Shown here in pieces: positions 27,311 to 45,651 of a stretch of DNA of 64,000 nt; position 1 is the first letter of the stretch; every line of letters starts with the position of its first letter. Source of the DNA: Candidatus Limnocylindria bacterium. GTDB taxonomy: Bacteria > Chloroflexota > Limnocylindria > QHBO01. Location of the stretch: assembly GCA_036274575.1 (NCBI GenBank), contig DASUFJ010000021.1:8347-72346 (forward strand), in the 5' to 3' direction. The position numbers were made by a program, and so were the translations under genes. Under the pieces are notes generated by a model, which saw nothing but the letters and a program-made list of their open reading frames with translations, did no database searches and was not told the DNA's origin.

Positions 27311-27432
27311 GGCGTGGCGAGTATAGGGTCGGCCCTACGTCATCCGGCCGCAGCGACGCTCGGCCAACGTCCCACATTCGAGTACGACGTTGTCCGGTGG
27401 GTCATCGAACGCCCCCGGGTGAAACTGCGCGC

Positions 27433-27891: not shown

Positions 27892-27899
27892 GGGGCGTC

Positions 27900-30141: not shown

Positions 30142-30205
30142 CCTGTCGCGGACGAGCGGTTGGCGCCCGATCCAGCACGCGGTGTGCCACTGAGCAAGCG
30201 GTTGG

Positions 30206-30775
30206 TCACGGCTCGGTGCCGCCGAGCGCCGCGTGCCGGAAGCAGCGCACCAGGTGGTCGTTGACGAGCCCGGCTGACTGCATGAAGGCGTAGCAGATCG
30301 TGGGGCCAACGAACCGGAAGCCCCGCTTCCGCAAGTCCTTCGACATGCGGGTCGATGCATCGGTCAGGTCCGGGACCTCGCCCATCTCGCGCCATCGGTT
30401 CTGGACCGTCCGTCCGTTCACGAAGGACCACAGGAAGCCATCGAAATCGTCGATCTCGGCCAGCGCGCGGGCGTTGTCGATGGTCGCGCCGATCTTCGCG
30501 CGGTTGCGCACGATGCCGGCGTCGGCCATCAGACGCGCGCGGTCCTCATCGGTGTAGGCCGCGACGCGCTCGGGATCGAAGCCGTCGAACGCCGCGCGGT
30601 AGCCGTCGCGCTTGCGGAGGACCGTGATCCACGCCAGGCCGGCCTGGGCTCCCTCCAGGCAGAGCAGCTCGAAGAGCGCGCGCCGATCGTGGATGGGGAC
30701 GCCCCACTCGTCGTCGTGATAGGCGCGGTACAGCGGGTCGCCCTCGGCCCAGTCGCAGCGGATCGGGTTGCTCAC
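30206..30775 (-). CDS. tag: DNA-3-methyladenine glycosylase I
   Basis: Motifs RCDWAEGDPLYRAYHDDEWGVP, FELLCLEGAQAGLAW and TICYAFMQSAGLVNDH. Confidence 0.92.
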   Translation of the reverse strand: MSNPIRCDWAEGDPLYRAYHDDEWGVPIHDRRALFELLCLEGAQAGLAWITVLRKRDGYRAAFDGFDPERVAAYTDEDRARLMADAGIVRNRAKIGATIDNARALAEIDDFDGFLWSFVNGRTVQNRWREMGEVPDLTDASTRMSKDLRKRGFRFVGPTICYAFMQSAGLVNDHLVRCFRHAALGGTEP

Positions 30776-32139
30776 AGCCGGAGCACCGCGCGCGCGACGA
30801 CGAAGTACACGACCAGGCCCGTCGCGTCGACCAGGGTCGTGATGAACGGCGCGCTGACGACCGCGGGATCGACCCCGACCCGACGCGCGACGAGCGGCAG
30901 CAGCGAGCCGACGAGCGCCGCGAGGGTGCAGACCGTGAGGAGCGTCACACTGACGACGATCGCGATCTCGCGCCCGACGAAGAGCCAGGTCGGCACGAAC
31001 GCCAGAAGGCCGAGCATGGTACCCAGGAGCAGCCCCACCCTCGCCTCCCGCAGCACGACGACGCCGAGGTCGTCGAAGCGCACTTCGCCTACGGCCAGGG
31101 CCCTGGTCACCGTGGTCGCCGCCTGCGCGCCGGTGTTGCCGCCGGTGCCGATGACGAGCGGGATGAACAGGGCGAGGGTTACGGCCTGGCTGAGCGTCTC
31201 CTCGAAGGCATGGAGGACGTTGACGGTCAGCGTGGCGGCCACAATGAGGACGAGCAGCCAGACAACCCGCGAGCGCGCGATGTGCATTACCGAGGTGGCG
31301 AGATAGGGCCTCCCCAACGGCTCCGCGCCGCCGGCGCGGGCGACGTCCTCCGTCTCCTCCTCCTCGAGGACCTCCATGGCGTCGTCGACGGTCACGACCC
31401 CGACGAGGCGGTCCTCCGAGTCGACAATCGGGAGCGCCAGCAGGTCCGCCTCGCGGATGAGGCGCGCGGCCTGCTCCTGGTCGGTGTCGACGCGGGCCGA
31501 GAAGACATCGATGTCCATGAGGTCGCCGACCAGGGCGTCGGGATCGGCGAGGACGAGATCGCGGAGGCCGAGCATGCCGAGCAAACGGCGCCGGTCGTCG
31601 GTCACCGGCAGCGCGTAGATCGTCTCCGCGGAGTGGCCGACCCGCCGCAGCCGCTCCAGGGCCTCGGTCGCGGTCATGCCGGCTCGCAGGCTGGCCACCT
31701 CCGGCGACATGAGGCGCCCCGCCGAGTCCTCGGGATACCCGAGGAGCGTCGCCGTCAGCCGGCGCTCGTTCGCCGACAGCCCGGCCAGCAGCCGATGCGC
31801 CACCTTGGCCGGCAGCTCCTCCGTGAGCCGGGCGCGGTCGTCGGGGTCCATCTCCTCGAAGAGCTGCCGGACGTTCGCCTCCCGCATCCCGTCGAGCAGC
31901 TCCTGCTGCAGCGACGGATCAAGGAGCTCGAAGACCTCGAGCGCCCGGTCGCGCGCCAGCAGGCGAAACGGCACCGCGCGGGCCTCGCGCGGCAGCCTCG
32001 ACAGCTCCTCGGCGATCCCGACCACATCCGCCTGTTCGAGCCAGCGACCGATGAGGTCGAGGTCGCCGCTCGTCAGGAGCTCATCCGGCTCGACGGTCGG
32101 GACCGCGTCCGGCGTGCCGGTGAGCGTGGGCCGCGTCAC
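30772..32139 (-). CDS. mgtE: magnesium transporter MgtE
   Basis: N-domain, tandem CBS region (ALPVTDDRRRLLGML, ALPIVDSEDRLVGVV) and C-terminal TM domain with GTGGNTGAQ. The start (GTG at 32139) is uncertain because no SD is visible. Confidence 0.9.
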   Translation of the reverse strand: MTRPTLTGTPDAVPTVEPDELLTSGDLDLIGRWLEQADVVGIAEELSRLPREARAVPFRLLARDRALEVFELLDPSLQQELLDGMREANVRQLFEEMDPDDRARLTEELPAKVAHRLLAGLSANERRLTATLLGYPEDSAGRLMSPEVASLRAGMTATEALERLRRVGHSAETIYALPVTDDRRRLLGMLGLRDLVLADPDALVGDLMDIDVFSARVDTDQEQAARLIREADLLALPIVDSEDRLVGVVTVDDAMEVLEEEETEDVARAGGAEPLGRPYLATSVMHIARSRVVWLLVLIVAATLTVNVLHAFEETLSQAVTLALFIPLVIGTGGNTGAQAATTVTRALAVGEVRFDDLGVVVLREARVGLLLGTMLGLLAFVPTWLFVGREIAIVVSVTLLTVCTLAALVGSLLPLVARRVGVDPAVVSAPFITTLVDATGLVVYFVVARAVLRL

Positions 32140-32163
32140 GCGCGGAGGATAGCCCGCAGATGA

Positions 32164-32192
32164 AGACGCCCGGGGCTCGGTCCCGGGCGTCT
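32164..32192. terminator. strong GC hairpin between the small ORFs and mgtE
   Basis: AGACGCCCGGG-gctcggt-CCCGGGCGTCT: an 11-bp perfect stem with a 7-nt loop. It lies 20 nt downstream of the sORF stop and 25 nt upstream of the annotated mgtE start. Confidence 0.5.
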
Positions 32193-32211
32193 GGGTCGTT
32201 TCGGCGGTCGA

Positions 32212-32388
32212 TCAGCTGGGTTGGTCCTGCATGCTGAAGCGCGGGAATCGGAGGATCGCGGTCCACGAGCCACGCGACTCACGGCGCGGCGCCGGCTCCG
32301 GCCGGTGTGTCCGTCGCCTCTGGGCGGCGGACCGCTCGCGATCCTGTTCCATTGCCCGCGCCACCATCAGCGCGGCATACGGGTTCAT
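32212..32388 (-). CDS. candidate small protein (58 aa), Arg/Pro-rich
   Basis: ATG at 32388-32386 is preceded by GGAGAA with 6-nt spacing. Translation: MNPYAALMVARAMEQDRERSAAQRRRTHRPEPAPRRESRGSWTAILRFPRFSMQDQPS. Starts 28 nt after the stop of the upstream sORF. Confidence 0.35.
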   Translation of the reverse strand: MNPYAALMVARAMEQDRERSAAQRRRTHRPEPAPRRESRGSWTAILRFPRFSMQDQPS

Positions 32389-32416
32389 CGGTCGTTCTCC
32401 ACGTGTCTCGGGTGGC

Positions 32417-32629
32417 TCAGTACGGGTACTGCCGGAGCCGGGGGAGCCACGGCTCAGCCGTGTCGCCGGCAAGCTCCGCGAGCGCCTGGCGGATTGAGCC
32501 GATGAGGCTCGGGCGCTGGCCCGCGTCCCCCTCGGCGCGCCGGTCCGGCCCCGTGGACCGATGCGGAGGCTGCGGGAAGAACGCGATCTCGACGGCGGCG
32601 CCGAAGGCTAGAGCGCCAGCTGCGAACAT
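32417..32629 (-). CDS. candidate small protein (70 aa) with hydrophobic N-terminus
   Basis: ATG at 32629-32627 is preceded by a perfect AAGGAGG (32644-32638) with 8-nt spacing. The N-terminus MFAAGALAFGAAVEIAFF is hydrophobic. Confidence 0.45.
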   Translation of the reverse strand: MFAAGALAFGAAVEIAFFPQPPHRSTGPDRRAEGDAGQRPSLIGSIRQALAELAGDTAEPWLPRLRQYPY

Positions 32630-32805
32630 CGTTCATGCCTCCTTGAAATGCTCAGTGCGGTGGATGACGGTGACATCGTCGCCATGGCCGCGTCCTTCGG
32701 CGACTGACACGGGTCGCGGGGGCGCGACCGATCTTCCGCCGACGGCGCCTACGTCATACGGCCGCCGCCTCGCAATTGCCCGCGCACCTATCCTGTGACG
32801 TGCCC

Positions 32806-34038
32806 ATGGAGACGGACGCCGCCCTGCGCGAGCTCACCTTCCTGTTTGCCGACGTCGAGGGCTCGACCCGCCTCGCGGAGCGTCACGGCGCGCTGGCCGG
32901 CGCCGCCCTGGCGCGCTATCACGATCTCGTGGCCGAGATCGCGGATCACCACGGTGGTCGCCTCTTCGAACGCATCGGTGACGGCGCGTACGCCAGCTTC
33001 GCCGATGCGGCCGCGGCGGTGGCGGCGGCGGACGAGCTCCAGATGGCCATCGCCGAGGAGGACTGGGGACCCATCGGCCGCATGCGGATCCGCATAGCCC
33101 TCGTGTCCGGCGAGGTGGAGGTCCGCGAGGACCGCTACTACGGCCGGCCCCTGTTCCGTGCCGCACGGCTCCAGGCGCTGGCCAGTGGCGGCGAGACGCT
33201 CGTCTCGGGCGTGACGATCGACCGCATGGGCGGCCGCGTGCCGGACGGTGCCGTCCTCCGCGACCTGGGACAGCAGCGGCTGCGCGACGTGCCCGACCCC
33301 GAGCGGGTGTTCGCGCTGGTGCATACTTCCCGCGCGCGCCCGGCCGAGGCGCCCGAGAGGGAGACGGATGATCAGCAGGGGACGGTGAGGGTGACTGAGG
33401 AAGAGGGTCCGATTCGAGTGCTCCTGGTCGACGACCACGCGGTCGTTCGGCGCGGGCTGCGCGGGTTCCTCGAGCTGCTCAAGGACTTCGACGTGGTCGG
33501 CGAGGCCGAGAACGGCCGCGAGGGCGTCGCCGCCGCCGACCGGCTCGTCCCCGACGTGGTCCTCATGGACCTGCTCATGCCCGAGATGGGCGGCCTCGAG
33601 GCCATCTCGGCGATCAAGTCCTCGCATCCGGAGATCGAGATCGTCGCCGTCACGTCGTTCATCGAGGAGGAGAAGGTCACCTCCGCCCTCGAGGCCGGCG
33701 CGTCCGGCTACCTCCTGAAGGACGCCGAGGCGGAGGAGGTGGCCCAGGCCATCCGGGCCGCCTACAACGGCGAGGTCCACCTGGACCCGGCGGTCTCACG
33801 CCTCCTCGCACAGCGCCTCCGCCAGCGGCGCGATGCGGAGCCGGTGGAGCCGCTCACCGGTCGCGAGAAGGAGGTCCTCGCCCAGCTCGCCAAGGGAGCC
33901 TCCAACAAGGAGATCGCCTACGAGCTCGGCATCACCGAGCGCACCGCCCGGACGCACGTCTCGAACATCCTGGGCAAGCTCGGCCTCGCGTCCCGGACGC
34001 AGGCCGCGCTCTACGCGGTCGAGCACAAGCTCGTCTGA
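32806..34038 (+). CDS. cyclase-homology domain fused to a NarL/LuxR-type response regulator (CHD-REC-HTH)
   Basis: Cyclase-like motifs FLFADVEGSTRL, GGRLFERIGDGAYASF and YYGRPLFRAARLQALASGGETLVS. REC: LLVDDH, VLMDLLMP, VTSF, LLKD. LuxR HTH: LTGREKEVLAQLAKGASNKEIAYELGITERTARTHVSNILGKLG. Alternative in-frame starts are TTG 32776 and GTG 32800. Confidence 0.88.
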   Translation: METDAALRELTFLFADVEGSTRLAERHGALAGAALARYHDLVAEIADHHGGRLFERIGDGAYASFADAAAAVAAADELQMAIAEEDWGPIGRMRIRIALVSGEVEVREDRYYGRPLFRAARLQALASGGETLVSGVTIDRMGGRVPDGAVLRDLGQQRLRDVPDPERVFALVHTSRARPAEAPERETDDQQGTVRVTEEEGPIRVLLVDDHAVVRRGLRGFLELLKDFDVVGEAENGREGVAAADRLVPDVVLMDLLMPEMGGLEAISAIKSSHPEIEIVAVTSFIEEEKVTSALEAGASGYLLKDAEAEEVAQAIRAAYNGEVHLDPAVSRLLAQRLRQRRDAEPVEPLTGREKEVLAQLAKGASNKEIAYELGITERTARTHVSNILGKLGLASRTQAALYAVEHKLV

Positions 34039-34080
34039 GCCCCGCGCTCATTGGCTCCGGTGGGGTTAGGTCGACGCGTC

Positions 34081-34349
34081 GCGCCCTGGAGTCGCATGAC
34101 GCTCGGCCCGGCGAGCATGTTTCGAGAAGCGACGCCTGGAGTTGTAAAACGCTCGCCTGCGGGAGCATTACGGGCGAAATGGCAGGCCGATGGGCCCACG
34201 CCACTCTCGCGCGCCTCGCCCTGCGGCCGATCTTCCCGCTAGTGCTCCGCCATGCGAGCATATTTCGAGAAGCGACACTTAGCGTTGAATAACGCTCCCC
34301 CGGCGAGCACATTTTCGAGAAGTCGCGCCCCGGAGTCGCATGACTCGCC
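34081..34349 (+). repeat. cluster of ~48-nt intergenic repeat units (three full units plus one half unit)
   Basis: Unit 1, 34110-34157: GGCGAGCATGTTTCGAGAAGCGACGCCTGGAGTTGTAAAACGCTCGCC. Unit 2, 34254-34300: GCGAGCATATTTCGAGAAGCGACACTTAGCGTTGAATAACGCTCCCC. Unit 3, 34302-34349: GGCGAGCACATTTTCGAGAAGTCGCGCCCCGGAGTCGCATGACTCGCC. Half unit 34081-34106 matches the 3' half of unit 3. Units carry terminal inverted repeats GGCGAG...CTCGCC. Confidence 0.7.
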
Positions 34350-34404
34350 GCCCGCGAGGACCGTCGACCGTAACCAGGCCCACAGCTCCGCACGGCACGA
34401 AGAG

Positions 34405-34432
34405 GCGCCCCGTCCCGGACCGGACGGGGCGC
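34405..34432 (-). terminator. GC-rich hairpin, likely terminator of the convergent genes
   Basis: GCGCCCCGTCC-cggacc-GGACGGGGCGC: an 11-bp perfect stem. On the minus strand it is followed by CTCTTCGT. Confidence 0.55.
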
Positions 34433-34444
34433 TGAGAGAACGAA

Positions 34445-34472
34445 GGAGTGGACCGAGGGACCGGCCCACTCC
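34445..34472 (-). terminator. second hairpin just after the stop of the membrane-protein gene
   Basis: GGAGTGG-(14 nt)-CCACTCC, located 15 nt downstream (minus strand) of the TAG at 34489-34487. Confidence 0.4.
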
Positions 34473-34486
34473 TCGATGGCCGTTGC

Positions 34487-34918
34487 CTAGGCGGTAGTGG
34501 GGCGCGACATCCCTGGGATGAACTCGGCGACCGAGTCAAGGGCTGCGCTGACGAAGGCCTTCGGGCTTCCGTAGACGCGGAGGATGTCAACGCCGACGAG
34601 GACGATCAGCGCGACCTCGATCCCTTTGGCGATCCAGCCGAGGGTGAAGTACGGGCCGATGACCAGGTAGCCGACGATGGTGGTGGCGGCGTAGCCCATC
34701 AGGGCGATCCGCGGAAACCAACTGAAGCGCTTGACGAGCGCCGTCGGAGCCAGGGCGCCGATCACGTAGAGGCCGGCGAGGCCGATGTAGCCGAGGCCGT
34801 TCAATGTGAAGAGCATGCCGCCGAGGCCGAGGTGGATGTACGCCGTGGCGCCGCTGAGGGCGACGATCGCGGCGGTGAGCATCACGCCGGCGGTTCGGCT
34901 GCGCATGAACTGGGGCAT
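34487..34918 (-). CDS. hypothetical membrane protein (4 TM helices)
   Basis: ATG at 34918-34916 preceded by GGGAGG. Translation begins MPQFMRSRTAGVMLTAAIVALSG. The longer ORF up to 35452 is Arg-rich and lacks support. Confidence 0.7.
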   Translation of the reverse strand: MPQFMRSRTAGVMLTAAIVALSGATAYIHLGLGGMLFTLNGLGYIGLAGLYVIGALAPTALVKRFSWFPRIALMGYAATTIVGYLVIGPYFTLGWIAKGIEVALIVLVGVDILRVYGSPKAFVSAALDSVAEFIPGMSRPTTA

Positions 34919-35134
34919 CTGGGACCTCCCGGTTGGATGGCTCGACGCCGGCGGCCGGCATCGGTTGATTTCGACCCCCTCAGTCTCCCGGTCCTCGACC
35001 GGTGTGCCATTCGGCAGACGGGCGACCTTCGAGGGCGACATACGCGGCAGGTTCGGTCGGTCAAATGACGTAGCCACGGCGGCCTGCCTGCCGATGGGGA
35101 GCCCGGAGCCCGATGGCGTATCCTTCCCGCGGCC

Positions 35135-38100
35135 ATGACCCGAGCGCCATCCCGACCAGGGCCAGCGACGGCTCCGCCCATCGGCGCGGTGCAGCCGCCG
35201 GATACCCACGCCATGCTGGCGCATGCGGTCGACGAGGCGGCGCGACTTCTGAAGGCCGACGGCGCGATGGTCTACCTGGTCGACGGCGAGCGGATGCGCT
35301 TCGCGGTCGATGCGGGGATCAAGAACGCCGAGGCGCAGCAGCTCATCCGCGACATGTCGCTGGATACGGGCGTCGGGCTCTTTGGCCATGCCGTTGCGAC
35401 CCGGGAGCTCGTCGTCACCGGCGACTACCGGAAGGACAAGCGGTTCTCCCACTCACCGACCGCGGACCGCATCGCCGACATCGCCAGCATGCGCTCGATG
35501 GCCGCCGCGCCGCTCATCTCGGGCGACGAGGTGCTGGGAGCCATCGGCGCCTATTCCTCGAGGCTCGATGACTTCACCGAGGCGGAGCTCGCACTGCTCC
35601 GCGCCCTGGCCGACCACGCAGCTGCCGCGATCGGCAACCAGCGGCTCATCGAGCGACTGGCCCGATCGCAGGAGGAGCTGGCGCGGAGGGTCGAGGCCCA
35701 GCGCACGCTGGGCGAGATCGCGGCACGCATCGCGGTGATCCGCGAGCCGGAGGCGGTGCTCCGGTCGGTGGTCGACGCGGCGCGCCGTCTCATCGGCTCC
35801 GACGGTGCGCACATGACCGAGATGCTGCCCGGTGGGATGGCGCTGCGACCGACCGTGGTCGTCGGCGGCAATCCGGCGTGGACGGAGGAGTGGCTGGCAC
35901 AGCTCCAGTTTCCGGTCAACGACGGCATCAACGGGCTTGCCGCCGGCACCGGCGCCGTCGTCGCCACCGAGGACTACCCGCTCGACCCGCGCATCCCCCA
36001 CGAGCCGACCGACCAGACCGTCGCCGAGCGCCTCGAGCTGCGAGGCATGGCCGCGGCTCCCCTGCGCGGCCCGGAGGGGAGGGTGATGGGCACGCTCGCC
36101 GTGTCCTTCGAGCGTCCGCATCGGTTCGGTGGCGACGAGCTGGAGCTCCTCCAGGGCCTCGCCGACCAGGGTGCCATCGCCATCGCGAACGCCAGGCTGA
36201 CCGAGGAGCTGCAGACGCACTCCGACGAGCTCGCACGCCGGGTCGACACGCAGCGAACGCTGGCCGAGATGGCGGCGCAGCTGACCTCGGTACGCGATCC
36301 GTCGGCGGTGCTGATCCAGACGCTCAAGGCGGCGGTGCGCCTGCTCAAGGGCCACGGCGGACAGATCGGCATGGTCTTCGCCGACGAGGAGGGCACGCTC
36401 CGCTGGGGCGATGGCCACTCGCTCGTCCACGGACGGCTGGTCCCGTTCACCAAGCAGGATCGCACGCGCGTGGACGACGGGATCTCTGGCAGATCAGTCC
36501 GCGAGCGCCGGCCGTCCTGGACCGACGACTACCTCGCCGACCAGTCGTTCCCCCACGACGACCGCTCGGACGAGGTCGGGCGCAGGCTCGGCATCCGGTC
36601 CGTCATGGCCGCGCCGCTCATCGGTGAGGAGGGCGCCGTGGGCGCCATCGGTGTGTACTCCGAGGAGCCTGGCGTCTTCGATGCCGATGACGGCGATCTG
36701 CTGGGCCTCCTGGCGGCGCAGGCGACCATCGTCCTCAGCAACGCCCGTCTCAACGCGGAAGCGGAGGTCTTCGCCGAGCAGCTGGCGCACCAGGTCGAGG
36801 CACAGCGCACGCTGGGTCGCATCGCCGCCTCGATCACCTCGCTGCGCGACCCGTCCGCGGTCCTGAGCCGGACGGTCGACGAGACGAAGCGCCTTCTTCA
36901 CGCCGACCACGTGATCATCCACCAGGTGCGCCCGGGGACCCACGAGCTCGCCGACTTCCGCGACGTGCTCACCGTCGGGGCCGATACGCCGGCGGCCGAT
37001 GAGGTCACGGTCAGCATCGGACAGGGAATCGCCGGGAGGGCGATCTCGGAGCAGCGCGTGTCATGGACGGGCAACTACCTCGCTGATGAGTCGTTCCAGC
37101 ACACGACGAGGGCCGACGAGTGGATCACGCGCTTCGGCTACCGATCGCAGATGAGCGCGCCGCTCATCGGTGAGGAGGGCGCGCTGGGCGCCATCAGCGC
37201 CTACTCGACGCGGTCCGACGCCTTCGGCGACGAGGACAGCGAGCTGCTCGGGGCTCTCGCCAGCCAGGCGGCGATCGTGCTGGGCAACGCCCGCCTCTAT
37301 GAGGAGCTCGAGCACCGGGTCGAGGCGCAGCGCTCGCTCGGCGCGATCGCCGCCCGCATCACGGCCATCCGCGAGCCCGGCGACGTCCTCCAGCGAACCC
37401 TCGACGAGGCGGTCCGCCTCCTGGACGCGGATGGCGGCCGGATCGAGCTCGTCTCCGAAGGGGGTGGCCTGCACTGGGCCTTCGGGCATTCGGCCATCGA
37501 CCTGCCCATCGAGCGAGCGGTGGGCGAGAGCCCCGTCGCCGCGGACGAGGGCGTCTCCGGTCGCGCGGTGGCCGAGCGCCGGGTGGTCCGCACCGGCGAC
37601 TATCTCGCCGACGAGGGCTTCTCCCACGCCGAGGCTCCGGACCGATACATCCGCCAGCACGGCATCCGGTCAGTCATGAGCGCGCCGCTCATCGGTGAGC
37701 TGGGAGCCATCGGCTCGCTCACCGTCCACTCTCAGACGCGCGAGGCGTTCGACGAGTCCGATGCCGAGCTCCTCGAGGTCCTCGCCAGCCAGGCGGCGAT
37801 CGCGGTCACCAACGCCAGGCTGTACGAGCAGCTGCGCGACCGCATCGACGCCCAGCGGACGCTCGCCTCCATCACCGCCGAGATCGCCGCGCTCCACGAG
37901 CCGGCCACCGTGCTCCAGCGCACCGCGGAGGAGGCACTGCGCCTGCTGCACGCCGATGCCGCGATCATCAACCCGCTCGAGGAGGACGAGACGCTCCTCG
38001 GGTGGCCGATCGCCTACGCGCCGTCGGACGGCCCGGCGGACGACGTTCCGGTGCGAGTCGGCCATGGCGTCAGCGGCCGGGCGATGTCCGAGCGCCGCGT

Positions 38101-40417
38101 CGTGCGCACCGGTGACTACCTCACCGATGCCGCCTTCGACCACGACGGTGAGCTGGACGACTACATCCGGCGCCGCGGGAGCCGATCGGTGATGAGCGCA
38201 CCACTCATCAGCAGCGCCGGTGGACTCGGCGTCCTGACCGTCCAGTCCGCCCGGGCGAACGCCTTCGACGAGGGCGACGCCGAGCTGCTGCGCCTCCTGG
38301 CCGACCAGGCGGCGATCGCCATCACGAACGCGCGTCTCTACGACGAGCTCGGCGACGAGTCGGCGGCGCTCGCGCGCCAGACCGATTCCCAGCGGCGACT
38401 GCTCGAGATCAACCAGGAGCTCCTGTCGACGCTGGAGCCGGAGGGCGTCCTCAACCTCATCGCCGACGGAATGAAGACCGTGGTCTGGTACGACAACCTC
38501 GCCATCTACCGGGTCGACGACAACGAGGAGATGCTCACCCCGGTCCTGGCGCGGGACCAGAACGCGGCGGCCGTGCTCGAGTTCCCGGTCCCGAAGGGAA
38601 GCGGCCTGACGTGGTGGACGATCGAGCACCGCGAGCCGGTGCTGCTCAACGATGCGCTCGACGATCCGCGCCTCGTCCAGATCCCGGGCACACCGCTCGA
38701 GGAGGAGGCGATCATCTCCGTGCCCCTCATCTCGGGCGACGAGGTCGTGGGCGCCATGAACATCAGCCGCACGGGCGGCGCCGAGGTCTCCTTCACCGAC
38801 GTCGACTTCGAGCTCGTCCGCCTCTTCGCCGCGCAGGCCGCGGTGGCGATCACCAACGCCCGCCTCTACGAGCAGCTGCGGGAGCGCATTGACGCGCAGC
38901 GCTCGCTGGCCGAGATCGCCGCACAGATCGCCTCGCTGCACGAGCCGCAGACGGTCCTCGATCGCGCGGTGGCCGACGCGGCGAGGCTGCTGCGAGCCGA
39001 TCGGGCCCAGATCAACCTGCTCGGTGACACCCCTGGGCACCTCGACCCGCCGATCGCCGCGGCGCCCGTCCCGCCCTCGCAGGAGGACGTGGTCGTGCCG
39101 ATCGGGTCCGGCATCGCGGGGATGGCCGCCGCCGAGCGGACGGTTCGCTGGACCGGCGACTATCTGGCCGACGACGCGTTCCCCCACGACGAGGGCGACA
39201 CCTGGATCGAGGCCCAGGACATCCATTCCATGATGTCGGCGCCGCTGCTCGGCCCGGACCGCCTCATCGGAACGATCACGGTCCAGGCCGTGGAGCGGGC
39301 GGCCTTCGGCACCGAGGACGCCGAGCTCCTCCAGCTCCTCGCCGACCAGGCGGCGATCGCGCTCACCAACGCGCGCCTGTACGCCGAGCTGGAGGAGTCG
39401 GAGCGCCGCTACCGCCACCTGGTCGACTACTCGCCCGACATCGTGTGGAGCCTCGACGCCGACGGCATCATCACCTACGTCAGCGACTCGCTCGAGCCGC
39501 GCTCGGGCTGGAAGCCGGAGCAGATCATCGGTCAGCCGTACTCGGTCATGATCAACGCGGATCGTCCGGAGGCCGTCGCCGTGTGGGAGGCGGTCCGGGA
39601 GCGACCCACCGAGGAGCACCGCCTGCGGACCGAGATGCCGCTGCTCGACGGCCGCCGCGCCCAGGTGGAGGTGGCGATGACCGGCACCATCGTCGATGGC
39701 AAGTTCGCCGGCGCTCATGGATCGGTCCGCGACATCAGCGAGCGGGAGCGGCTCGAGGGCGACCTGCGCAGCCAGGCGGCGGAGCTCGCGGCCAGCCAGG
39801 AGCGCGCCCACCTCGCACGCGAGCTGCACGACTCGGTCACGCAGGCGCTGTTCAGCATGGGGCTGACGCTCCGCACGCTCGAGCTGCTTCTGAACTCGGA
39901 CCCGGAGGGGGCGCGGACGAAGCTGATGGAGCTGCGGGAGCTCCAGAAGGATGCCCTGGCCGAGATGCGCACGCTCATTTTCGAGCTGCGTCCGTCGTCG
40001 CTCGAGTCCGACGGCCTGGTCCAGGCGCTGCGGACCCACGCCACGGCGGTCCAGCGGCGGACGGGCCTGGTCATCGTCGTCGACGCGGAGCCGATCGAGC
40101 GCATGCCGCTGCCCGCGGAGGAGGCGCTGTACCGCATCGGCCAGGAGGCGCTCCACAACGTCGTGAAGCACGCCAATGCCGCGAACGCCACCATCAAGAT
40201 CTGGATCGAAGCCGATCGGGTCCACCTCGCGGTGACCGATGACGGCGAGGGCTTCGACCCGGCCGACGTGCCGCGCGGTAGTCACCTGGGCCTCATCGGG
40301 ATGCGACAGCGCGTGGATCTCGTCGGCGGCGAGCTGCGCGTCGAGAGCCACAAGGGGACTGGTACGACCATCGCCGCCTCGGTACCGCAGGTCGGAGCGT
40401 CTGAATCGGCGGAATGA
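35135..40417 (+). CDS. soluble sensor histidine kinase with eight tandem GAF modules, one PAS, HisKA_3 and HATPase_c
   Basis: 1760 aa. Eight recurrences of the motif ..LL..LA.QAAIA..NARLY.. plus linker R.VEAQRTL..IA..I....EP..VL. PAS-like YRHLVDYSPDIVWSLDADGIITYVSDS. H-box ARELHDSVTQALF. N/G boxes LHNVVKHANA, DDGEGFD and GLIGMRQRV. An alternative start is ATG 35213 (MLAHAVDEAARLL). Confidence 0.92.
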   Translation: MTRAPSRPGPATAPPIGAVQPPDTHAMLAHAVDEAARLLKADGAMVYLVDGERMRFAVDAGIKNAEAQQLIRDMSLDTGVGLFGHAVATRELVVTGDYRKDKRFSHSPTADRIADIASMRSMAAAPLISGDEVLGAIGAYSSRLDDFTEAELALLRALADHAAAAIGNQRLIERLARSQEELARRVEAQRTLGEIAARIAVIREPEAVLRSVVDAARRLIGSDGAHMTEMLPGGMALRPTVVVGGNPAWTEEWLAQLQFPVNDGINGLAAGTGAVVATEDYPLDPRIPHEPTDQTVAERLELRGMAAAPLRGPEGRVMGTLAVSFERPHRFGGDELELLQGLADQGAIAIANARLTEELQTHSDELARRVDTQRTLAEMAAQLTSVRDPSAVLIQTLKAAVRLLKGHGGQIGMVFADEEGTLRWGDGHSLVHGRLVPFTKQDRTRVDDGISGRSVRERRPSWTDDYLADQSFPHDDRSDEVGRRLGIRSVMAAPLIGEEGAVGAIGVYSEEPGVFDADDGDLLGLLAAQATIVLSNARLNAEAEVFAEQLAHQVEAQRTLGRIAASITSLRDPSAVLSRTVDETKRLLHADHVIIHQVRPGTHELADFRDVLTVGADTPAADEVTVSIGQGIAGRAISEQRVSWTGNYLADESFQHTTRADEWITRFGYRSQMSAPLIGEEGALGAISAYSTRSDAFGDEDSELLGALASQAAIVLGNARLYEELEHRVEAQRSLGAIAARITAIREPGDVLQRTLDEAVRLLDADGGRIELVSEGGGLHWAFGHSAIDLPIERAVGESPVAADEGVSGRAVAERRVVRTGDYLADEGFSHAEAPDRYIRQHGIRSVMSAPLIGELGAIGSLTVHSQTREAFDESDAELLEVLASQAAIAVTNARLYEQLRDRIDAQRTLASITAEIAALHEPATVLQRTAEEALRLLHADAAIINPLEEDETLLGWPIAYAPSDGPADDVPVRVGHGVSGRAMSERRVVRTGDYLTDAAFDHDGELDDYIRRRGSRSVMSAPLISSAGGLGVLTVQSARANAFDEGDAELLRLLADQAAIAITNARLYDELGDESAALARQTDSQRRLLEINQELLSTLEPEGVLNLIADGMKTVVWYDNLAIYRVDDNEEMLTPVLARDQNAAAVLEFPVPKGSGLTWWTIEHREPVLLNDALDDPRLVQIPGTPLEEEAIISVPLISGDEVVGAMNISRTGGAEVSFTDVDFELVRLFAAQAAVAITNARLYEQLRERIDAQRSLAEIAAQIASLHEPQTVLDRAVADAARLLRADRAQINLLGDTPGHLDPPIAAAPVPPSQEDVVVPIGSGIAGMAAAERTVRWTGDYLADDAFPHDEGDTWIEAQDIHSMMSAPLLGPDRLIGTITVQAVERAAFGTEDAELLQLLADQAAIALTNARLYAELEESERRYRHLVDYSPDIVWSLDADGIITYVSDSLEPRSGWKPEQIIGQPYSVMINADRPEAVAVWEAVRERPTEEHRLRTEMPLLDGRRAQVEVAMTGTIVDGKFAGAHGSVRDISERERLEGDLRSQAAELAASQERAHLARELHDSVTQALFSMGLTLRTLELLLNSDPEGARTKLMELRELQKDALAEMRTLIFELRPSSLESDGLVQALRTHATAVQRRTGLVIVVDAEPIERMPLPAEEALYRIGQEALHNVVKHANAANATIKIWIEADRVHLAVTDDGEGFDPADVPRGSHLGLIGMRQRVDLVGGELRVESHKGTGTTIAASVPQVGASESAE
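35213..39380 (+). repeat. intragenic array of eight GAF-coding modules (period about 520-550 nt)
   Basis: Linker motifs recur near 35686, 36238, 36790, 37312, 37840, 38380 and 38883. Similarity is at the protein level and partly visible at the DNA level. Boundaries are approximate. Confidence 0.7.
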
Positions 40418-40480
40418 CGTAGTCGGCGCTGCGCCATAGCGCCAGTGGTCGTCCGCAGGCCAGCGGCATAGGCTCAGTTC

Positions 40481-40870
40481 ATGCCGCTCAGCCCGCTGCC
40501 CGATTCGAGGACCCCTCCGCGGGTGCTGATCGTGGATGCGGACCGTCGCGTGCAGCAGAGCCTTTCAGACCTCCTCGGCATCACCGGGGAGGTCGACGTC
40601 GTGGGGCGCGCCGGCGACGTCCGCGCGGCGCTCGAGCAGGTCGAGATGTCGCATCCCGATGTCGTCCTCATGGACCCGCGACTTCCCGACATCGAGGCCG
40701 GGGTCGCGCTCATCGGGGGCATGAGCCGCGCGTGGCCGGGCCTGCGGATCGTGCTCACCGGCTGGAGCGACACGGAGGGCCACGCACTGACGAACGTGCC
40801 CACCCGATACGTGAGCAAGGACGGCACACCCGAGGAATTCGTCCGCGCCGTCCTCAGGGCCTGCGCGTAG
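40481..40870 (+). CDS. single-domain response regulator (receiver only, NarL-like REC without HTH)
   Basis: RVLIVDAD, phospho-acceptor in VVLMDPRLPD, T in VLTGW, K in YVSKD. Ends after the REC fold (129 aa). Starts 63 nt downstream of the GAF kinase. Confidence 0.88.
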   Translation: MPLSPLPDSRTPPRVLIVDADRRVQQSLSDLLGITGEVDVVGRAGDVRAALEQVEMSHPDVVLMDPRLPDIEAGVALIGGMSRAWPGLRIVLTGWSDTEGHALTNVPTRYVSKDGTPEEFVRAVLRACA

Positions 40871-40919: not shown

Positions 40920-41954
40920 TCAGAGATCCAGAGCCTGCCGCACCGACGCGAAGTCGGGCGGGATCGGTGTGAGCGAGCCCTCGTCGGCCTGGATGGCGTC
41001 CGGATCCTTCAGGCCATGACCGGTCAACACGCAGACCACCACCTCCTGCGGGCCGATGCGTCCGTCGCGTCGCAGGGTGCGCACGCCGGCCACGCCGGCA
41101 GCGGACGCGGGCTCGCAGAAGACACCCTCCATCGCCACCACCATGCGCTGCGCCTCGAGGATCTCCTCGTCGCTCACCGCCTCGATGCTGCCACCGGACT
41201 CGTCGCGCGCCGCGGTCGCACCCGCCCATGACGCCGGGTTGCCGATGCGGATCGCGGTCGCCACCGTCTCCGGTGACTCAACCATCTCGCCGCGAACGAT
41301 CGGCGCCGCGCCCTCGGCCTGGAAGCCGAGCATCCGCGGCCGGCCGCGTTCGTATCTGACGAAGCCGCGCCAGTAGGCGGTGATGTTGCCGGCGTTGCCC
41401 ACCGGCAGGGCGAGCGCATCCGGCGCACGGCCCAGCACGTCGACGACCTCCCACGCCGCGGTCTGCTGTCCCTCGAGTCGATCGGGGTTGATCGAGTTGA
41501 CGACGACCGCGACGCCCTCGTCCCCGAGCCGGCGGACCGCGTCGAGCGCCGCGTCGAAATTGCCATCGACCATCGTCAGCCGAGCTCCGGCGGCCAGCGC
41601 CTGCGCCAGCTTGCCACGAGCCACCTTCCCGGCCGGCAGGATGACGTGGCAGGGGAGTCCGGCCGCCGCCGCGTATGCCGCCGCCGAGGCCGACGTATTG
41701 CCGGTCGACGCGCAGACGACGGCCTGCGCGCCCGCGCTCAGGGCGCGGTTGACGGCGAGCACCATGCCGCGATCCTTGAACGAGCCGGTTGGGTTCGTGC
41801 CCTCGAACTTCAGGTGGAGCGCGTTGAGGCCGATCTCGGCGCCGAGACGCCGCGCATGGATGAGCGGGGTGCCTCCCTCGCCGAGCGTCAGGCGGAACGA
41901 CTCGTCGTCGCGCGCCAGGAGGCTGCGGTAGCGCTCGAGGAGTGGTGGGATCAC
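40920..41954 (-). CDS. thrC: threonine synthase
   Basis: PLP-lysine motif FEGTNPTGSFKDRG, plus ASTGNTSAS and GNAGN. Confidence 0.93.
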   Translation of the reverse strand: MIPPLLERYRSLLARDDESFRLTLGEGGTPLIHARRLGAEIGLNALHLKFEGTNPTGSFKDRGMVLAVNRALSAGAQAVVCASTGNTSASAAAYAAAAGLPCHVILPAGKVARGKLAQALAAGARLTMVDGNFDAALDAVRRLGDEGVAVVVNSINPDRLEGQQTAAWEVVDVLGRAPDALALPVGNAGNITAYWRGFVRYERGRPRMLGFQAEGAAPIVRGEMVESPETVATAIRIGNPASWAGATAARDESGGSIEAVSDEEILEAQRMVVAMEGVFCEPASAAGVAGVRTLRRDGRIGPQEVVVCVLTGHGLKDPDAIQADEGSLTPIPPDFASVRQALDL

Positions 41955-41988: not shown

Positions 41989-44900
41989 CTATCGCTCGGT
42001 CAGCGCCTCGCGGACGATCCGGGCCTGCTCGACATGGTGCGTCGCCGGGTAGCCCTCGGCCGGGCGGGATCGTTCGGGCCGCGAGATGTCGCCGAGCGGG
42101 ATCTTGTACGGCACGAGATGTCGGATGCGGGGCAGGACGAACTTGCGGGCCCCCATGTTCCGCGGCTCCTCCTGGACCCAGGCGAACGACTCGATCTTCG
42201 GATAGCGATCGAGGATCGGCTGCAGGTCCTCCGCGGGGAACGGGTAGAGGCGCTCCACCCGGACGACGGCGACGTCCTTGGCAGCCTCGAAGTCCGGCGA
42301 GGCGAGGAGGTCGTAGTAGACCTTTCCGCTGCACAGCAGGAGACGGCGCACGCGGCCGGCGGCGCGGTCGCTGGAGAAGCGCGGATCGTCGAGGACCGAA
42401 CGGAAGGCGCCGTCGGCCAGCTCGCCCGGACGAGACGCCGCCTGCGGCAGGCGGAGCAGCGACTTCGGCGTCATGACCACCAGCGGCCTCGCGTCGGGGT
42501 GGCGGGCCTGGCGGCGGAGGAGGTGGAAGTACTGTGCCGGCGTGGTGGGGTAGACGACGCGGATGTTGCCCTCCGCGCCGAGCGCCAGGAACCGCTCGAG
42601 CCGCGCCGACGAGTGCTCCGGCCCCGATCCCTCGTAGCCGTGCGGCAGGAGGAGGGTGAGCCGTGACGTCTGACGCCACTTGGCGAGGCCGGAGACGAGG
42701 AACTGGTCGATGATGATCTCGGCCCCGTTGACGAAGTCCCCGTACTGCGCCTCCCACAGGACGAGCGCGTCGGGCGCCGCTACGGCATAGCCGTACTCGA
42801 AGCCGAGGCAGGCGTATTCGGACAGCGGCGAGTTGTGGAGCTCGAAGCTCGCCTTCGCGCCGGGGAGGTGCTGGAGCGGAACGTGGGGCTCGCCGGTCCC
42901 GGCATCCCACAGCCCCGCGTGGCGCTGGCTGAACGTGCCACGCACCGTGTCCTGGCCGGTGAGCCGCACCGGAATCCCCTCGCGAAGCAGGGATGCAAAG
43001 GCCAGGAGCTCGGCGTGCGCCCAGTTGACCGATGGCTGGTCGCGGTCCAGGGCGTGGACGCGCTGCTCGAGCTGCTTGACCAGCTTGGGATGCACCGCGA
43101 ACCCGTCGGGAACGTTGGCCATCCCCGCGTTGAGGTCGCGGAGTGTCTCGAGCGGCACCGGGATCTCCGGCTCGCCGACGTCCTCGGGCGGCAGCGCCTC
43201 CGGACCGCGGTCGAGCTCCGGCTCCGGCTCCTCGGCGCGCTTGCGCACGGTCGCCTGCCGTTTCGCGAGGTCGCGCTGTGCGTCCTTCACCAGCTTGTCG
43301 GCCTGCGCCTCGGAGATGACCCCGGCCTCGACCAGCCTGGCCTGATAGAGCTCACGGACCGATGGATGGTCGTCGATCGCGGCATACATGGCCGGCTGCG
43401 AGTACGCCGGCTCGTCGCCCTCGTTGTGCCCGTATCGGCGGTAGCCGACGAGGTCGATGACGACGTCGTGCCCGAATCGCTCTCGGTACATCATCGCCAG
43501 GCGCGCCGCGGCCAGGCACGCCTCCGGATCGTCGGCGTTGACGTGGACGATCGGCGCGTCGAAGCCCTTCGCCAGGTCCGAGGAGTAGTCGGTCGAGCGT
43601 CCCTCGCGCGTGCCGGTCGTGAAGCCGACCTGGTTGTTCGCGATGAGATGGACCGTGCCGCCGGTGGCATAGCCATCCAGCCTGGCGAGGTTGAGCGTCT
43701 CGGCCACCACTCCCTGGGCGGCGAACGCCGCGTCGCCATGGATGAGGATCGGGAGCGTCGTGTCGTGGTCGACCGTCACGATCGGGCGCGATCTGTCCGT
43801 CTGCTCGGCGCGCGTTCGGCCCTCGATCACCGGGTTCACGGCCTCCAGGTGGCTCGGATTCGGCGACAGGATGACCCGCACCTCCGCGTCGTCGCTGGCG
43901 AGGAACGAGCCCTCGGCGCCGAGGTGGTACTTCACGTCGTCGGAGCCGCCCTTCGGCGCCGTCGGCGCATCGGTCCCGGCACGTCCCGCCTCGAACTCCG
44001 CGAGGATGGCCTCGTAGCTCACGCCCACGACGTGGGCCAGCACGTTGAGCCGTCCGCGGTGCGCCATGCCGATCATCACGCGCCGCGCACCCTGGTCGGC
44101 GGCGTCCCCGAGGATGACGTCCAGCATCGGGACCATGGTGTCGAGGCCCTCGATGCTGAACCGCTTCTGGCCCAGGTACGCGCGATGAAGGAAGCGCTCC
44201 AGGGCCTCCACGCTGACCAGGCGCTCGAAGAGGGCGAGCTGGTCCTCGGCCTCCATCGGCCTCCGATGCTCGCCCGACTCGATGACCCGGCGCAGCCAGA
44301 CGCGCTCCTCGTGGGAGCCGATGTGTTCGACCTCGTAGGCGATCGTCCCCGAGTACGTGTCGCGAAGGCGGGGCAGCGCCTCGCCGAGCGTTGCGCCGGG
44401 CACGTAGATCCGCATGAGCTCGGCCGGGATGCCCGCCATGTTCGCCTCAGTCAGACCCAGCGGACCCGGGTCGAGGGCCGGGTCACCGGGCGGTTCGGAG
44501 CCCAGCGGGTCGAGATGCGCGGCAAGGTGGCCGAAGTGCCGGTACGCCTTGACCAGCGCCATCCCGGCCGCCACCGCCTTCAGCGGCTCGTCGGCGTCGC
44601 CGGCGGTCGCGGGCGGCGGCGCGGCGATCGCCTCGGCGGGCGCCGGCATGGGCTCGCCCGTCGTCACGTCCGCAGCTCGGGCCCCGAGAGCAGCGAAGAC
44701 ATCGGCATAGAAGGCGTCCTCTCCGGACAGCAGCGCCTCGACGCGACGCAGGAAGGCTCCGGACTCGGCGCCCTGGATGATCCGGTGGTCGTAGGTCGAG
44801 GTGATCGTCATGCGGCGCTCGCCGCCCACGTCGCGGATCGCTCCCGTCGCGACGATGGTGCCCTGGTTCGGCATCAGCCGCGGCACGCTCATCGTCGTGC

Positions 44901-45651
44901 CCAGCGTCCCGGGATTCGTGAGGGTGATCGTGGCGCCCACGAAGTCGTCCGCGGCGAGCTTGTTCGTCCGCGCCTTCTCGACGAGCTCCTCGTAACGCTG
45001 ATGGAACGCGTCGAAGGTCACCTCGTCGGCGTCCCTGATGACCGGCACCACCAGGAACCGACCGCCCGGACGCTCCACGTCCACCGCGAGCCCCAGGTTG
45101 ATCGCGCCAGGATCCACCCGATACGGCGTCCCCTCGACGGTCGTGAAGAAGTGGCTCATCGAGCGCTGCTCGGCCGCGGCGCGCACGATTGCCCAGCCGA
45201 CGAGGTGGGTGAAGCTGACCTTGCGCGGCGCGATCTGCGCGTTGAGCTCGCGCCGCCGCGCCTCGAGCGTCGTTACCGGGATCTCGCGCACGCTCGTCGC
45301 CGTAGGCACGTCCAGGCTGGCCGCCATGTTCCGCGCCAGGGCCGCGGCAGGCCCCTTGATCGCGGTCGCGCCCTCCGGCACGGGTGGCTCGGCGGACGCC
45401 GGCGGCGCGGGCGGTGCGGCTGCTGCGGCAGCCTGCTGCTGGTCGCCGTTCGCCGTCGGCGGCGTCGCCGCTACCGGCTCCAAGCCCGTGGCGCCGGAGT
45501 CGAACAGCGTGCGCCACTCCGGATCGACGCTTGCGGGGTCGAGCCGGTAGCGCTCGTAGAGATCGGCGACGTAGCCCGCGTTGACGAGGTTGAGCTCGTC
45601 CAGCGGCTCGCTCGTCGCGGATGGAGCGGGCTGATCGGGGTCGGTCGGCAT
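41989..45651 (-). CDS. kgd: multifunctional 2-oxoglutarate dehydrogenase/decarboxylase E1 with N-terminal E2-like acyltransferase domain (Kgd/OdhA type)
   Basis: 1220 aa. The N-terminal succinyltransferase-like core contains STYDHRIIQGAESG. This is followed by an E1o ThDP region (GMAHRGRLNVL, HGDAAFAGQGVV, GYRRYGHNEGDEP, LLLPHGYEGSGPEHSS). Confidence 0.95.
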   Translation of the reverse strand: MPTDPDQPAPSATSEPLDELNLVNAGYVADLYERYRLDPASVDPEWRTLFDSGATGLEPVAATPPTANGDQQQAAAAAAPPAPPASAEPPVPEGATAIKGPAAALARNMAASLDVPTATSVREIPVTTLEARRRELNAQIAPRKVSFTHLVGWAIVRAAAEQRSMSHFFTTVEGTPYRVDPGAINLGLAVDVERPGGRFLVVPVIRDADEVTFDAFHQRYEELVEKARTNKLAADDFVGATITLTNPGTLGTTMSVPRLMPNQGTIVATGAIRDVGGERRMTITSTYDHRIIQGAESGAFLRRVEALLSGEDAFYADVFAALGARAADVTTGEPMPAPAEAIAAPPPATAGDADEPLKAVAAGMALVKAYRHFGHLAAHLDPLGSEPPGDPALDPGPLGLTEANMAGIPAELMRIYVPGATLGEALPRLRDTYSGTIAYEVEHIGSHEERVWLRRVIESGEHRRPMEAEDQLALFERLVSVEALERFLHRAYLGQKRFSIEGLDTMVPMLDVILGDAADQGARRVMIGMAHRGRLNVLAHVVGVSYEAILAEFEAGRAGTDAPTAPKGGSDDVKYHLGAEGSFLASDDAEVRVILSPNPSHLEAVNPVIEGRTRAEQTDRSRPIVTVDHDTTLPILIHGDAAFAAQGVVAETLNLARLDGYATGGTVHLIANNQVGFTTGTREGRSTDYSSDLAKGFDAPIVHVNADDPEACLAAARLAMMYRERFGHDVVIDLVGYRRYGHNEGDEPAYSQPAMYAAIDDHPSVRELYQARLVEAGVISEAQADKLVKDAQRDLAKRQATVRKRAEEPEPELDRGPEALPPEDVGEPEIPVPLETLRDLNAGMANVPDGFAVHPKLVKQLEQRVHALDRDQPSVNWAHAELLAFASLLREGIPVRLTGQDTVRGTFSQRHAGLWDAGTGEPHVPLQHLPGAKASFELHNSPLSEYACLGFEYGYAVAAPDALVLWEAQYGDFVNGAEIIIDQFLVSGLAKWRQTSRLTLLLPHGYEGSGPEHSSARLERFLALGAEGNIRVVYPTTPAQYFHLLRRQARHPDARPLVVMTPKSLLRLPQAASRPGELADGAFRSVLDDPRFSSDRAAGRVRRLLLCSGKVYYDLLASPDFEAAKDVAVVRVERLYPFPAEDLQPILDRYPKIESFAWVQEEPRNMGARKFVLPRIRHLVPYKIPLGDISRPERSRPAEGYPATHHVEQARIVREALTER

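Follow-up and report, generated by a model that had tools for sequence, protein, structure and literature searches.

We describe here a putative signalling system encoded on a 64,000-nt stretch of DNA (contig DASUFJ010000021.1, positions 8,347 to 72,346; hereafter the window) from a bacterium of the class Limnocylindria (Chloroflexota). The window has a G+C content of 71% and belongs to a metagenome-assembled genome of 2.7 Mb, which consists of 141 contigs, is 95% complete and represents a widespread, uncultured lineage of soil Chloroflexota. We favor the reading, at a probability of about 0.68, that the locus codes for a two-component system of three proteins found specifically in some members of the Limnocylindria, made up of one histidine kinase and two receiver proteins, autoregulated through a shared DNA box, and extended later by a cyclase-homology domain (CHD). 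The kinase, a soluble protein that combines a long GAF array with one PAS domain, would sense an intracellular signal, autophosphorylate on His1565 and then pass the phosphoryl group to two NarL-type receivers. One of them would be a LiaR/VraR-like DNA-binding regulator, the other a protein consisting of a receiver (REC) domain only, which may compete for or drain the phosphoryl group or feed back on the kinase. Once phosphorylated, the regulator would probably bind the motif tCGGcCGrATGACGTAG in front of each of the three genes (those of the regulator itself, the kinase and the REC-only protein) and, among the closest relatives, in front of thrB as well; the system would thereby set its own level. 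The CHD would have joined the N-terminus of the regulator later, in part of one family; it most likely dimerises head to tail, helping or modulating oligomerisation of the regulator, and may also bind or turn over a nucleotide. For this reading we draw on domain content, co-conservation, the one-to-one match in number between kinases and regulators, and on where the box lies and how well it is kept; what it proposes from them concerns phosphotransfer, the factor binding the box and the roles of the REC-only protein and the CHD.

The regulator (410 aa, 32806-34038, + strand) was identified by Pfam, PDB search and fold match. It comprises the CHD (residues 1-176), an acidic linker (177-199), a REC domain (about 203-320; Response_reg, 96 bits) and a GerE-type helix-turn-helix (about 349-404; 71.5 bits). 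We place its start at the ATG at 32806 and not at the TTG at 32776, since orthologues align from about residue 2-10 of this ATG. In the orthologue alignment Asp209/Asp210, Asp255, Thr283 and Lys305 are invariant, and the REC-helix-turn-helix core matches LiaR of Enterococcus faecium with an E-value of 3.9e-61 at 52% identity, the recognition helix reading RTARTH in the regulator and KTVKTH in LiaR. With these receiver residues and its helix-turn-helix it is a response regulator of the NarL/LuxR (LiaR/VraR) type. The kinase (1760 aa, 35135-40417, + strand) showed in Pfam eight GAF stretches, a PAS domain, HisKA_3 (63.6 bits) and HATPase_c (58.2 bits), with His1565 in ELHDSV as the phospho-accepting residue of a HisKA_3 sensor kinase. 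The Pfam matches span residues 23-1752 of 1760 and no hydrophobic membrane helix was seen when the translation was read by eye, by which the kinase is soluble. The REC-only protein (129 aa, 40481-40870, + strand) contains Response_reg alone and no output domain, as expected of a single-domain response regulator, and NarL-type receivers head its NCBIfam matches; the DPRLPD motif carries the phospho-acceptor Asp65, which is invariant, with conservation of 90% or more at Asp19, Asp21 and Lys113. Judged by these residues both receivers look phosphorylatable. A preliminary description of the window, made from its letters alone, had already given the three genes with these domain architectures and coordinates and had called the gene directly 3' of the kinase a NarL-like receiver without output domain; the Pfam and NCBIfam scans confirmed it, apart from the PAS domain, which it had not mentioned. 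The gaps it reported also agree with the coordinates, with 63 nt between kinase and REC-only gene (40418-40480) and 1096 nt, or about 1.1 kb, between regulator and kinase (34039-35134). The latter holds a gene for a 143-aa protein (34487-34918, - strand) that is divergent from the kinase gene and encodes four hydrophobic helices read from the translation; it is referred to here as the four-transmembrane (4-TM) gene.

We determined the conservation of the trio in two collections of loci. Among 80 loci collected with the regulator as seed a kinase core was present in 57, and in all 57 a REC-only gene lies at most 700 bp downstream of the kinase. These kinase-bearing loci show two gene orders: 32 are of type A, where the regulator is followed by the 4-TM gene on the opposite strand, the kinase and the REC-only gene, and 25 are of type B, where the 4-TM gene comes first and the kinase, REC-only and regulator genes follow in tandem. 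In 19 of the 25 type B gaps the REC-only gene was confirmed by phmmer, and the 4-TM gene adjoins the kinase in 47 of the 57 loci, in both gene orders. Of the 23 seeded loci in which no kinase core was present, most run into a contig end; one (L041) shows no kinase-core match but six GAF matches. For the reverse test the REC-only profile was searched in 141 genomes drawn evenly from the class, where a clean split appears between orthologues scoring 108 bits or more, in 36 genomes, and generic receivers scoring 85 bits or less. Orthologues were found in 24/47 genomes of family f1 and 12/42 of family f3, and in 0/46, 0/5 and 0/1 genomes of families f2, f4 and f5, respectively; two of the genomes carrying them (G143, G117) are unpublished. 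REC-seeded loci were then taken from 20 of the 24 orthologue-bearing genomes outside the genus of the window. A kinase-core match of at least 200 aa lies directly upstream of the REC-only gene in 19 of the 20, the remaining locus (L126) having six GAF matches there. The regulator is present at 71-81% identity, again in 19 of 20, the exception (L125) stopping at a contig edge, and the 4-TM gene adjoins the kinase in 16. All f1 loci are of type A and all f3 loci of type B. Co-conservation of the trio, the test set beforehand, is thus seen in two families and two gene orders. Within the genus of the window the entire block from an upstream GAF-HisKA kinase to a dehydrogenase gene is syntenic, which alone says little about function.

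The genome of the window contains seven HisKA_3 matches and seven full NarL-type regulators, and exactly one such regulator lies within 8 kb of each kinase. The six other pairs account for each other, so the CHD-bearing regulator is left for the kinase with eight GAF units. Judging from gene content and order, the regulator is probably the cognate partner of this kinase and the REC-only protein the constant third member of the system. That the kinase may feed both receivers, as had been suggested at the outset, is therefore probable from the co-conservation, from the tandem order in f3 and from the other HisKA_3 kinases having NarL-type regulators of their own nearby.

Aligning the intergenic regions between 4-TM gene and kinase of the 32 type A loci revealed two conserved blocks, ATGACGTA and, near the start codon, GATGGCGTATCCTC. 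Extended over 198 distinct instances the first block, referred to as the box, gives the motif quoted above. With up to one mismatch the 10-mer AATGACGTAG has four matches in the window compared to 0.62 expected, and only 1 of 100 shuffles reached four. Three of the matches lie upstream of the trio genes: an inverted copy (TATGACGTAG; 32749..32758, - strand) 48-57 nt upstream of the regulator ATG, a copy of AATGACGTAG (35064..35073, + strand) 62-71 nt upstream of the kinase ATG, and another copy of AATGACGTAG (40413..40422, + strand), which overlaps the kinase stop codon and lies 59-68 nt upstream of the REC-only ATG. The fourth box (27335..27344, - strand) lies in front of thrB, 12 nt ahead of a TATACT hexamer.

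The boxes are kept in relatives at the same three places. The exact 8-mer was found upstream of the kinase, the REC-only gene and, inverted, the regulator in 21, 23 and 20 of 25 type A loci with CHD, in 6, 16 and 5 of 16 type A loci without CHD, and in 18, 17 and 0 of 35 type B loci. That type B loci have no separate regulator box fits the place of the regulator behind the REC-only gene in the same orientation. Before the REC-only gene the box has the same orientation as in the window in 56 of 76 loci, and in the 25 CHD-bearing loci the three trio places hold 64 of the 81 boxes present in 451 kb. The thrB box is limited to the closest relatives (19 of 35 thrB-holding loci, all at 75% protein identity or more) and gives a hint that the regulon may include threonine synthesis. 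The only enrichments in the flanks of the box, T at -8 (43%) and C at -3 (73%), coincide with fixed positions of the LiaR consensus, reported as T-N4-C-N4-G-N4-A (PMC4482077), and the 17-mer of the kinase box, TCGGTCAAATGACGTAG, fits this consensus at all four fixed positions. Genome-wide, the 9-mer ATGACGTA(G) occurs in 40 copies compared to 6 expected. We did not use this excess as evidence, since most copies appear to lie inside coding sequence, as judged by eye from their flanks; a flank containing CGG accompanies only four copies, all of them within the window.

All three trio genes are preceded by -10-like hexamers: TATCCT (32789..32794, + strand) 11 nt before the regulator ATG, TATCCT (35119..35124, + strand) 10 nt before the kinase ATG and inside the conserved block GATGGCGTATCCTC, and TAGGCT (40469..40474, + strand) 6 nt before the REC-only ATG, the last one inferred from its flank. 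A Shine-Dalgarno sequence cannot be seen before any of the three start codons. A scan with the sigma-70 consensus gave no promoter-like site, and the terminator scan gave one terminator-like site compared to 1.1 expected. Since the hexamers lie 6-11 nt before the starts and a Shine-Dalgarno sequence is not visible, the trio mRNAs would be leaderless or near-leaderless, and the centre of the box would lie some 45-65 nt before the start of transcription. The box itself as a -35 or extracytoplasmic-function (ECF)-type promoter element is ruled out by its spacing to the -10-like hexamers of 45, 47, 31 and 12 nt. The shared box upstream of all three genes suggests transcriptional autoregulation, in which, as we infer from its positions, the regulator of the trio would itself bind the boxes and raise the levels of the kinase, the regulator and the REC-only competitor.

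The CHD scored 18.2 bits against Pfam Guanylate_cyc, below the cut-off of 21.9. It nevertheless is a real cyclase-homology domain: phmmer against the PDB returned Ma1120 (E 7.8e-14), the AlphaFold model reached mean predicted local distance difference test (pLDDT) values of 84-98 in blocks of 10 residues over residues 11-170, and Foldseek matched Ma1120 and Rv1900c with template modelling (TM) scores of 0.87-0.93 and a root-mean-square deviation of 1.5-2.1 Å. The active site was mapped through the alignment to Ma1120, for which Lys101, Asp157, Ala164 and Arg168 are given as key residues, the enzyme being active despite Ala at the Asn position (PMC4215837). Both metal-binding aspartates are kept (Asp16, Asp59) and invariant in 28 sequences. 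Of the transition-state pair Arg121 is likewise invariant in the 28 orthologues, and the Asn position holds Phe117, which varies in a few rows. The substrate-specifying positions do not follow the characterised enzymes. The pairs described are Lys/Asp for ATP and Glu plus Cys/Ser/Thr/His/Ala/Gly for GTP (PMC4215837); the CHD has Glu55 at the Lys and Arg110 at the Asp position, both invariant in the 28 orthologues, and among characterised specificity pairs we found none that matches Glu55/Arg110. Within the CHD conservation is highest at the pocket motifs FERIGDGAY and DRYYGRPLFRAARL; the domain otherwise diverges to about 50% identity, whereas the REC-helix-turn-helix core stays near 80%. The 23-residue linker between CHD and receiver is disordered in the AlphaFold model. 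ESMFold2 predicted a CHD homodimer with a score of 0.65 (best of three controls 0.00), a contact agreement of at least 90% between runs and a partner pLDDT of at least 89; of 30 proteins with a solved homo-pair structure 20 reach the mark applied, compared to 1 of 23 whose solved structure is a single chain. Since class III cyclase dimers have already been solved, this pass may stem from structures known to the predictor and shows likeness to those dimers rather than proof of dimerisation. The predicted interface includes residues 55-59, 110, 117 and 121 and thus residues of the pocket.

The CHD is distributed unevenly. It is present in the genus of the window and in genera g15, g17 and g18 of family f1, missing in the fetched loci of g19, g23 and g25, and was found in none of the f3 loci examined. 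A tree of the regulator core and kinase core (72 rows) splits types A and B at 100% support. On this tree the state of the CHD changes at least five times, at least three of the changes being forced by well-supported branches, and two CHD-less rows are nested in the 20-row clade of the window itself. On the simplest reading these two rows would represent losses, although the change counts cannot tell gain from loss. Since the state changes repeatedly while the trio persists, the CHD is, as far as the tree tells, a later and dispensable add-on to the regulator in part of family f1 only. The genome of the window has 21 CHD matches in its 2.7 Mb, 20 besides that of the regulator. Among the closest paralogues, at 34-40% identity, are the CHDs at the N-termini of two STAND-type proteins (CHD, NB-ARC/AAA, TPR; G000 contigs C114:27458-30139 and C57:37885-40632, loci L118 and L119), which likewise do not have the canonical Lys, Asp and Asn. 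Two loci of the collection are broken up: in L028 (G005:C277) the CHD and the REC-LuxR part lie in separate frames, maybe an assembly error or a decaying copy, and in L063 (G021) the regulator, the kinase and neighbouring genes lie in many frame-shifted pieces, maybe assembly errors or decaying copies.

We also assessed the GAF units of the kinase. The signature T-G-D-Y-x-x-D-x-x-F-x-H is present in six of the eight units and the seventh unit is of a different subtype. GAF domains that bind cyclic nucleoside monophosphates (cNMPs), of the PDE2/5/10 and CyaB1/2 type, carry the signature NK-X(5-24)-F-X3-DE. None of the eight units matches this signature; aligned to PDE10A and CyaB2 they retain the F and the D, and the N-K pair is absent. 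A single GAF unit found no match in the PDB at E-values up to 0.01. A profile of all eight units matched the cAMP-binding tandem GAF of CyaB2 first (E 8.7e-18), and also the GAF of an HD-domain protein (E 6e-15) and the haem-binding GAF-A of DevS (E 7e-12); since the latter two were also matched, we regard these matches as generic. Orthologous kinases have from 2 to at least 9 GAF units in stop-to-stop frames of 723-2451 codons, and the number varies from 2 to 8 within the genus of the window alone. A link between the number of GAF units and the CHD is not evident, with 3-8 units in CHD-bearing loci, 2-6 in CHD-less type A and 3-9 in type B loci, as counted with a home-made hidden Markov model that probably undercounts.

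Several observations weigh against the autoregulated three-protein system or parts of it. Regulator homologues at 71-74% identity also occur alone, since no kinase was found in L104 and L110, where 10 kb was covered to either side, nor in L072. The loci are not independent: the same genomes are partly in both collections and two loci (L075, L130) are identical, so that the counts describe a pattern and not independent trials. In the REC-only protein the Thr/Ser position varies. As for the box, 10 of 16 CHD-less type A loci and 17 of 35 type B loci do not have the exact 8-mer before the kinase, and the offsets in relatives depend on start codons estimated by tblastn. The box is asymmetric, and NarL-type regulators usually bind repeats. 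The other three boxes of the window fit the LiaR consensus at only three of the four positions, and the consensus is loose, so another factor could bind. Finally, the active-site region is the best conserved part of the CHD, which speaks more for a working pocket than for a module that serves dimerisation alone.

A different division of labor, in which the REC-only protein is the main partner of the kinase, acting either on another target or in a DivK/CheY-type feedback on the kinase, and the LuxR regulator is served by another kinase with mere synteny as their link, would account for the REC-only gene being the closest and most constant neighbour of the kinase (57/57 loci and, by the 200-aa kinase-core criterion, 19/20 REC-seeded loci), as well as for the type A regulator, which has moved away and has a promoter region of its own, and for the few regulator homologues without a kinase. 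We consider it unlikely, as the regulator stays linked in both gene orders and both families, the 95%-complete genome has no spare HisKA_3 kinase for it, and the same box precedes all three genes. Much closer to the three-protein system stands the view of the CHD as a catalytically dead pseudo-enzyme, a nucleotide sensor or a mere dimer holder, which would give a second input to a LiaR-like regulator that needs higher oligomers for DNA binding. The non-canonical specificity residues, the likewise non-canonical CHDs of the two STAND proteins among the closest paralogues, the disordered linker of 23 residues and the passing homodimer prediction all agree with it; so do the repeated state changes in a persisting trio, which mark the domain as dispensable. 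LiaR, moreover, is activated through a change from dimer to tetramer, as reported (PMC4482077). Dimerisation alone, however, needs no invariant pair of metal-binding aspartates plus an arginine, and the view overlaps with our preferred reading, from which it differs solely in denying catalysis. We give it somewhat less than an even chance.

The preliminary description had further proposed a feedback loop, in which the CHD, if it makes or binds a nucleotide, talks back to the sensor. Taken as a closed second-messenger loop, an active CHD, set by phosphorylation of the receiver, would make a product that binds the GAF units of the kinase and feeds back on the sensor. Several of the above findings are compatible with an active enzyme, namely the invariance of Asp16, Asp59 and Arg121, the well-conserved pocket motifs, the activity reported for the nearest solved relative Ma1120 despite its Ala at the Asn position (PMC4215837), and pocket residues at the predicted dimer interface; on the side of the sensor, CyaB2 is the best PDB match of the GAF profile. 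But Glu55, Arg110 and Phe117 stand at the Lys, Asp and Asn positions with no characterised pair found to match, no GAF unit has the complete signature, and the profile matches DevS and the HD-domain protein as well. The state of the CHD changes at least five times, with two CHD-less rows within the clade of the window, while type B kinases have 3-9 GAF units alongside plain regulators, and with 20 other CHD matches in the genome any cNMP pool need not stem from the regulator. Such a loop is improbable, a shade more so than the alternative partner of the kinase, and as the logic of the system it is not supported, in view of the patchy CHD, the non-canonical Glu55/Arg110 pair, the absent N-K pair and the GAF arrays in CHD-less relatives. 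From the distribution of the domain, the cNMP half of the proposal would at best be a lineage-specific overlay. In its most far-reaching form the f1 regulator would be a protein with two outputs, where phosphorylation drives both DNA binding and formation of a cyclase dimer with an unprecedented Glu/Arg pair, and the product is read by the GAF array of the same kinase, closing a loop on top of the autoregulation through the ATGACGTA box; we regard this as a long shot.

We compared the three-protein system favored here with characterised systems. LiaFSR and VraTSR, which respond to cell-envelope stress in Firmicutes, are similar in several respects: the regulator core is 52% identical to LiaR of E. 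faecium and 47% to VraR of Staphylococcus aureus, the kinase core matches the NCBIfam model of LiaS at E 7.9e-29, although under the cut-off of that model, the box fits the loose LiaR consensus, and the system apparently regulates its own genes. They differ in their intramembrane sensor, in whose place the locus has a soluble kinase with eight GAF units and a PAS domain. No homologue of LiaF/VraT was found, the neighbouring 4-TM protein matching no Pfam or NCBIfam family, so the locus does not have the intramembrane-sensing LiaS and membrane inhibitor LiaF of a three-component LiaFSR system. The REC-only protein and the N-terminal CHD on the regulator are extra, and each gene here has its own box in contrast to a single operon promoter. 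The top NCBIfam names, MadS and MadR, described as an Enterococcus envelope-stress system, were rejected as identities, their scores lying far under the cut-offs (225 vs 500 bits and 165 vs 300 bits) and indicating family likeness only.

DosS/DosT-DosR (DevS/DevR) of Mycobacterium tuberculosis likewise pairs a soluble GAF-GAF-HisKA_3 kinase with a NarL/LuxR-type regulator; DevR matches our regulator at E 1.2e-37, and DevS GAF-A appeared among the matches of the GAF profile at E 7e-12. The array here has eight GAF units, and 2 to at least 9 in relatives, instead of two, sequence comparison gave no evidence for haem binding by them, and the REC-only partner and the CHD are additional. In the mycobacterial CHD-ATPase-LuxR proteins (Rv0386 group) a class III CHD also stands at the N-terminus of a LuxR-type DNA-binding protein; Rv0386 itself reportedly has non-canonical substrate-specifying residues. 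Between CHD and helix-turn-helix these proteins carry a STAND/AAA ATPase, unlike the phosphorylatable receiver found here. A subfamily combining CHD and LuxR has been described, and the census behind it, in the portion available to us, shows no CHD+REC+LuxR architecture (PMC3466318). The minimal class III cyclase domains of Ma1120 and Rv1900c are the best sequence and fold matches of the CHD, and Ma1120 also does not have the canonical Asn; it differs in having Lys101 and Asp157 in place of Glu55 and Arg110. The trio is a full member of none of LiaSR/VraSR, DosS/T-DosR and the mycobacterial CHD-LuxR proteins. Among the matches listed in literature searches on tandem-GAF HisKA_3 kinases, Limnocylindria two-component systems and CHD combined with receiver and LuxR, neither the trio nor the CHD-REC-LuxR regulator is described; automated annotation at the Joint Genome Institute (JGI) already labels the fusion 'NarL/FixJ response regulator/class 3 adenylate cyclase'.

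The locus illustrates how a cognate pair can be assigned although kinase and regulator genes do not adjoin: a second gene order, found in a sister family, and a genome-wide one-to-one count decide what one locus by itself could not. It offers a conserved kinase, a single-domain receiver and a regulator with a candidate operator, and synthetic genes would allow in vitro tests of all these parts. Natural experiments in the gain and removal of signalling modules are provided by the CHD-REC-LuxR fusion and by the arrays of 2 to at least 9 GAF units, and sister species with and without each module are ready-made pairs for comparison.

Between regulator and kinase the preliminary description had noted a repeat-filled spacer and the divergent 4-TM gene, and both were borne out. 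In the ESM Atlas the 4-TM protein found only unnamed Chloroflexota clusters and a weak lead to DUF7475 (score 0.84). The spacer between the convergent regulator and 4-TM genes carries direct repeats (34071..34354) with a 57-nt pair at 81%, a 40-nt pair at 83% and a 16-nt unit present three times. No further copy was found anywhere in the genome and the core motif is absent from orthologous spacers; we treat the repeats as a local feature. Between the same convergent genes, at 34404-34433, lies a G+C-rich, near-perfect hairpin (GCGCCCCGTCCCGG / CCGGACGGGGCGC), which lacks a T-run and went unreported in the terminator scan. Rfam searches at E-values up to 1 gave no match in the spacer and kinase leader (33900-35300) and no riboswitch or other family in the region between mgtE and the regulator (32100-32850).

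The signalling locus is flanked by thrB and thrC, of which thrB has the box in its promoter region in the closest relatives. Upstream of the regulator lie thrB (homoserine kinase, 26396-27292, - strand, 212 bits vs a cut-off of 168), a further GAF-HisKA kinase (28255-30360, - strand) and mgtE (30772-32139, - strand). Downstream of the REC-only gene thrC (threonine synthase, 40920-41954, - strand, 305 bits vs a cut-off of 167) is followed by a gene for a fused 2-oxoglutarate dehydrogenase (41989-45651, - strand). From the thrB box to the upstream GAF-HisKA kinase (27345-28254), a distance of roughly 900 nt, no frame has coding-like G+C at the codon positions. In the 666 nt between mgtE and the regulator two short minus-strand frames lie within 32212-32636, one of which carries AAGGAGGC immediately 5' of its ATG at 32636.

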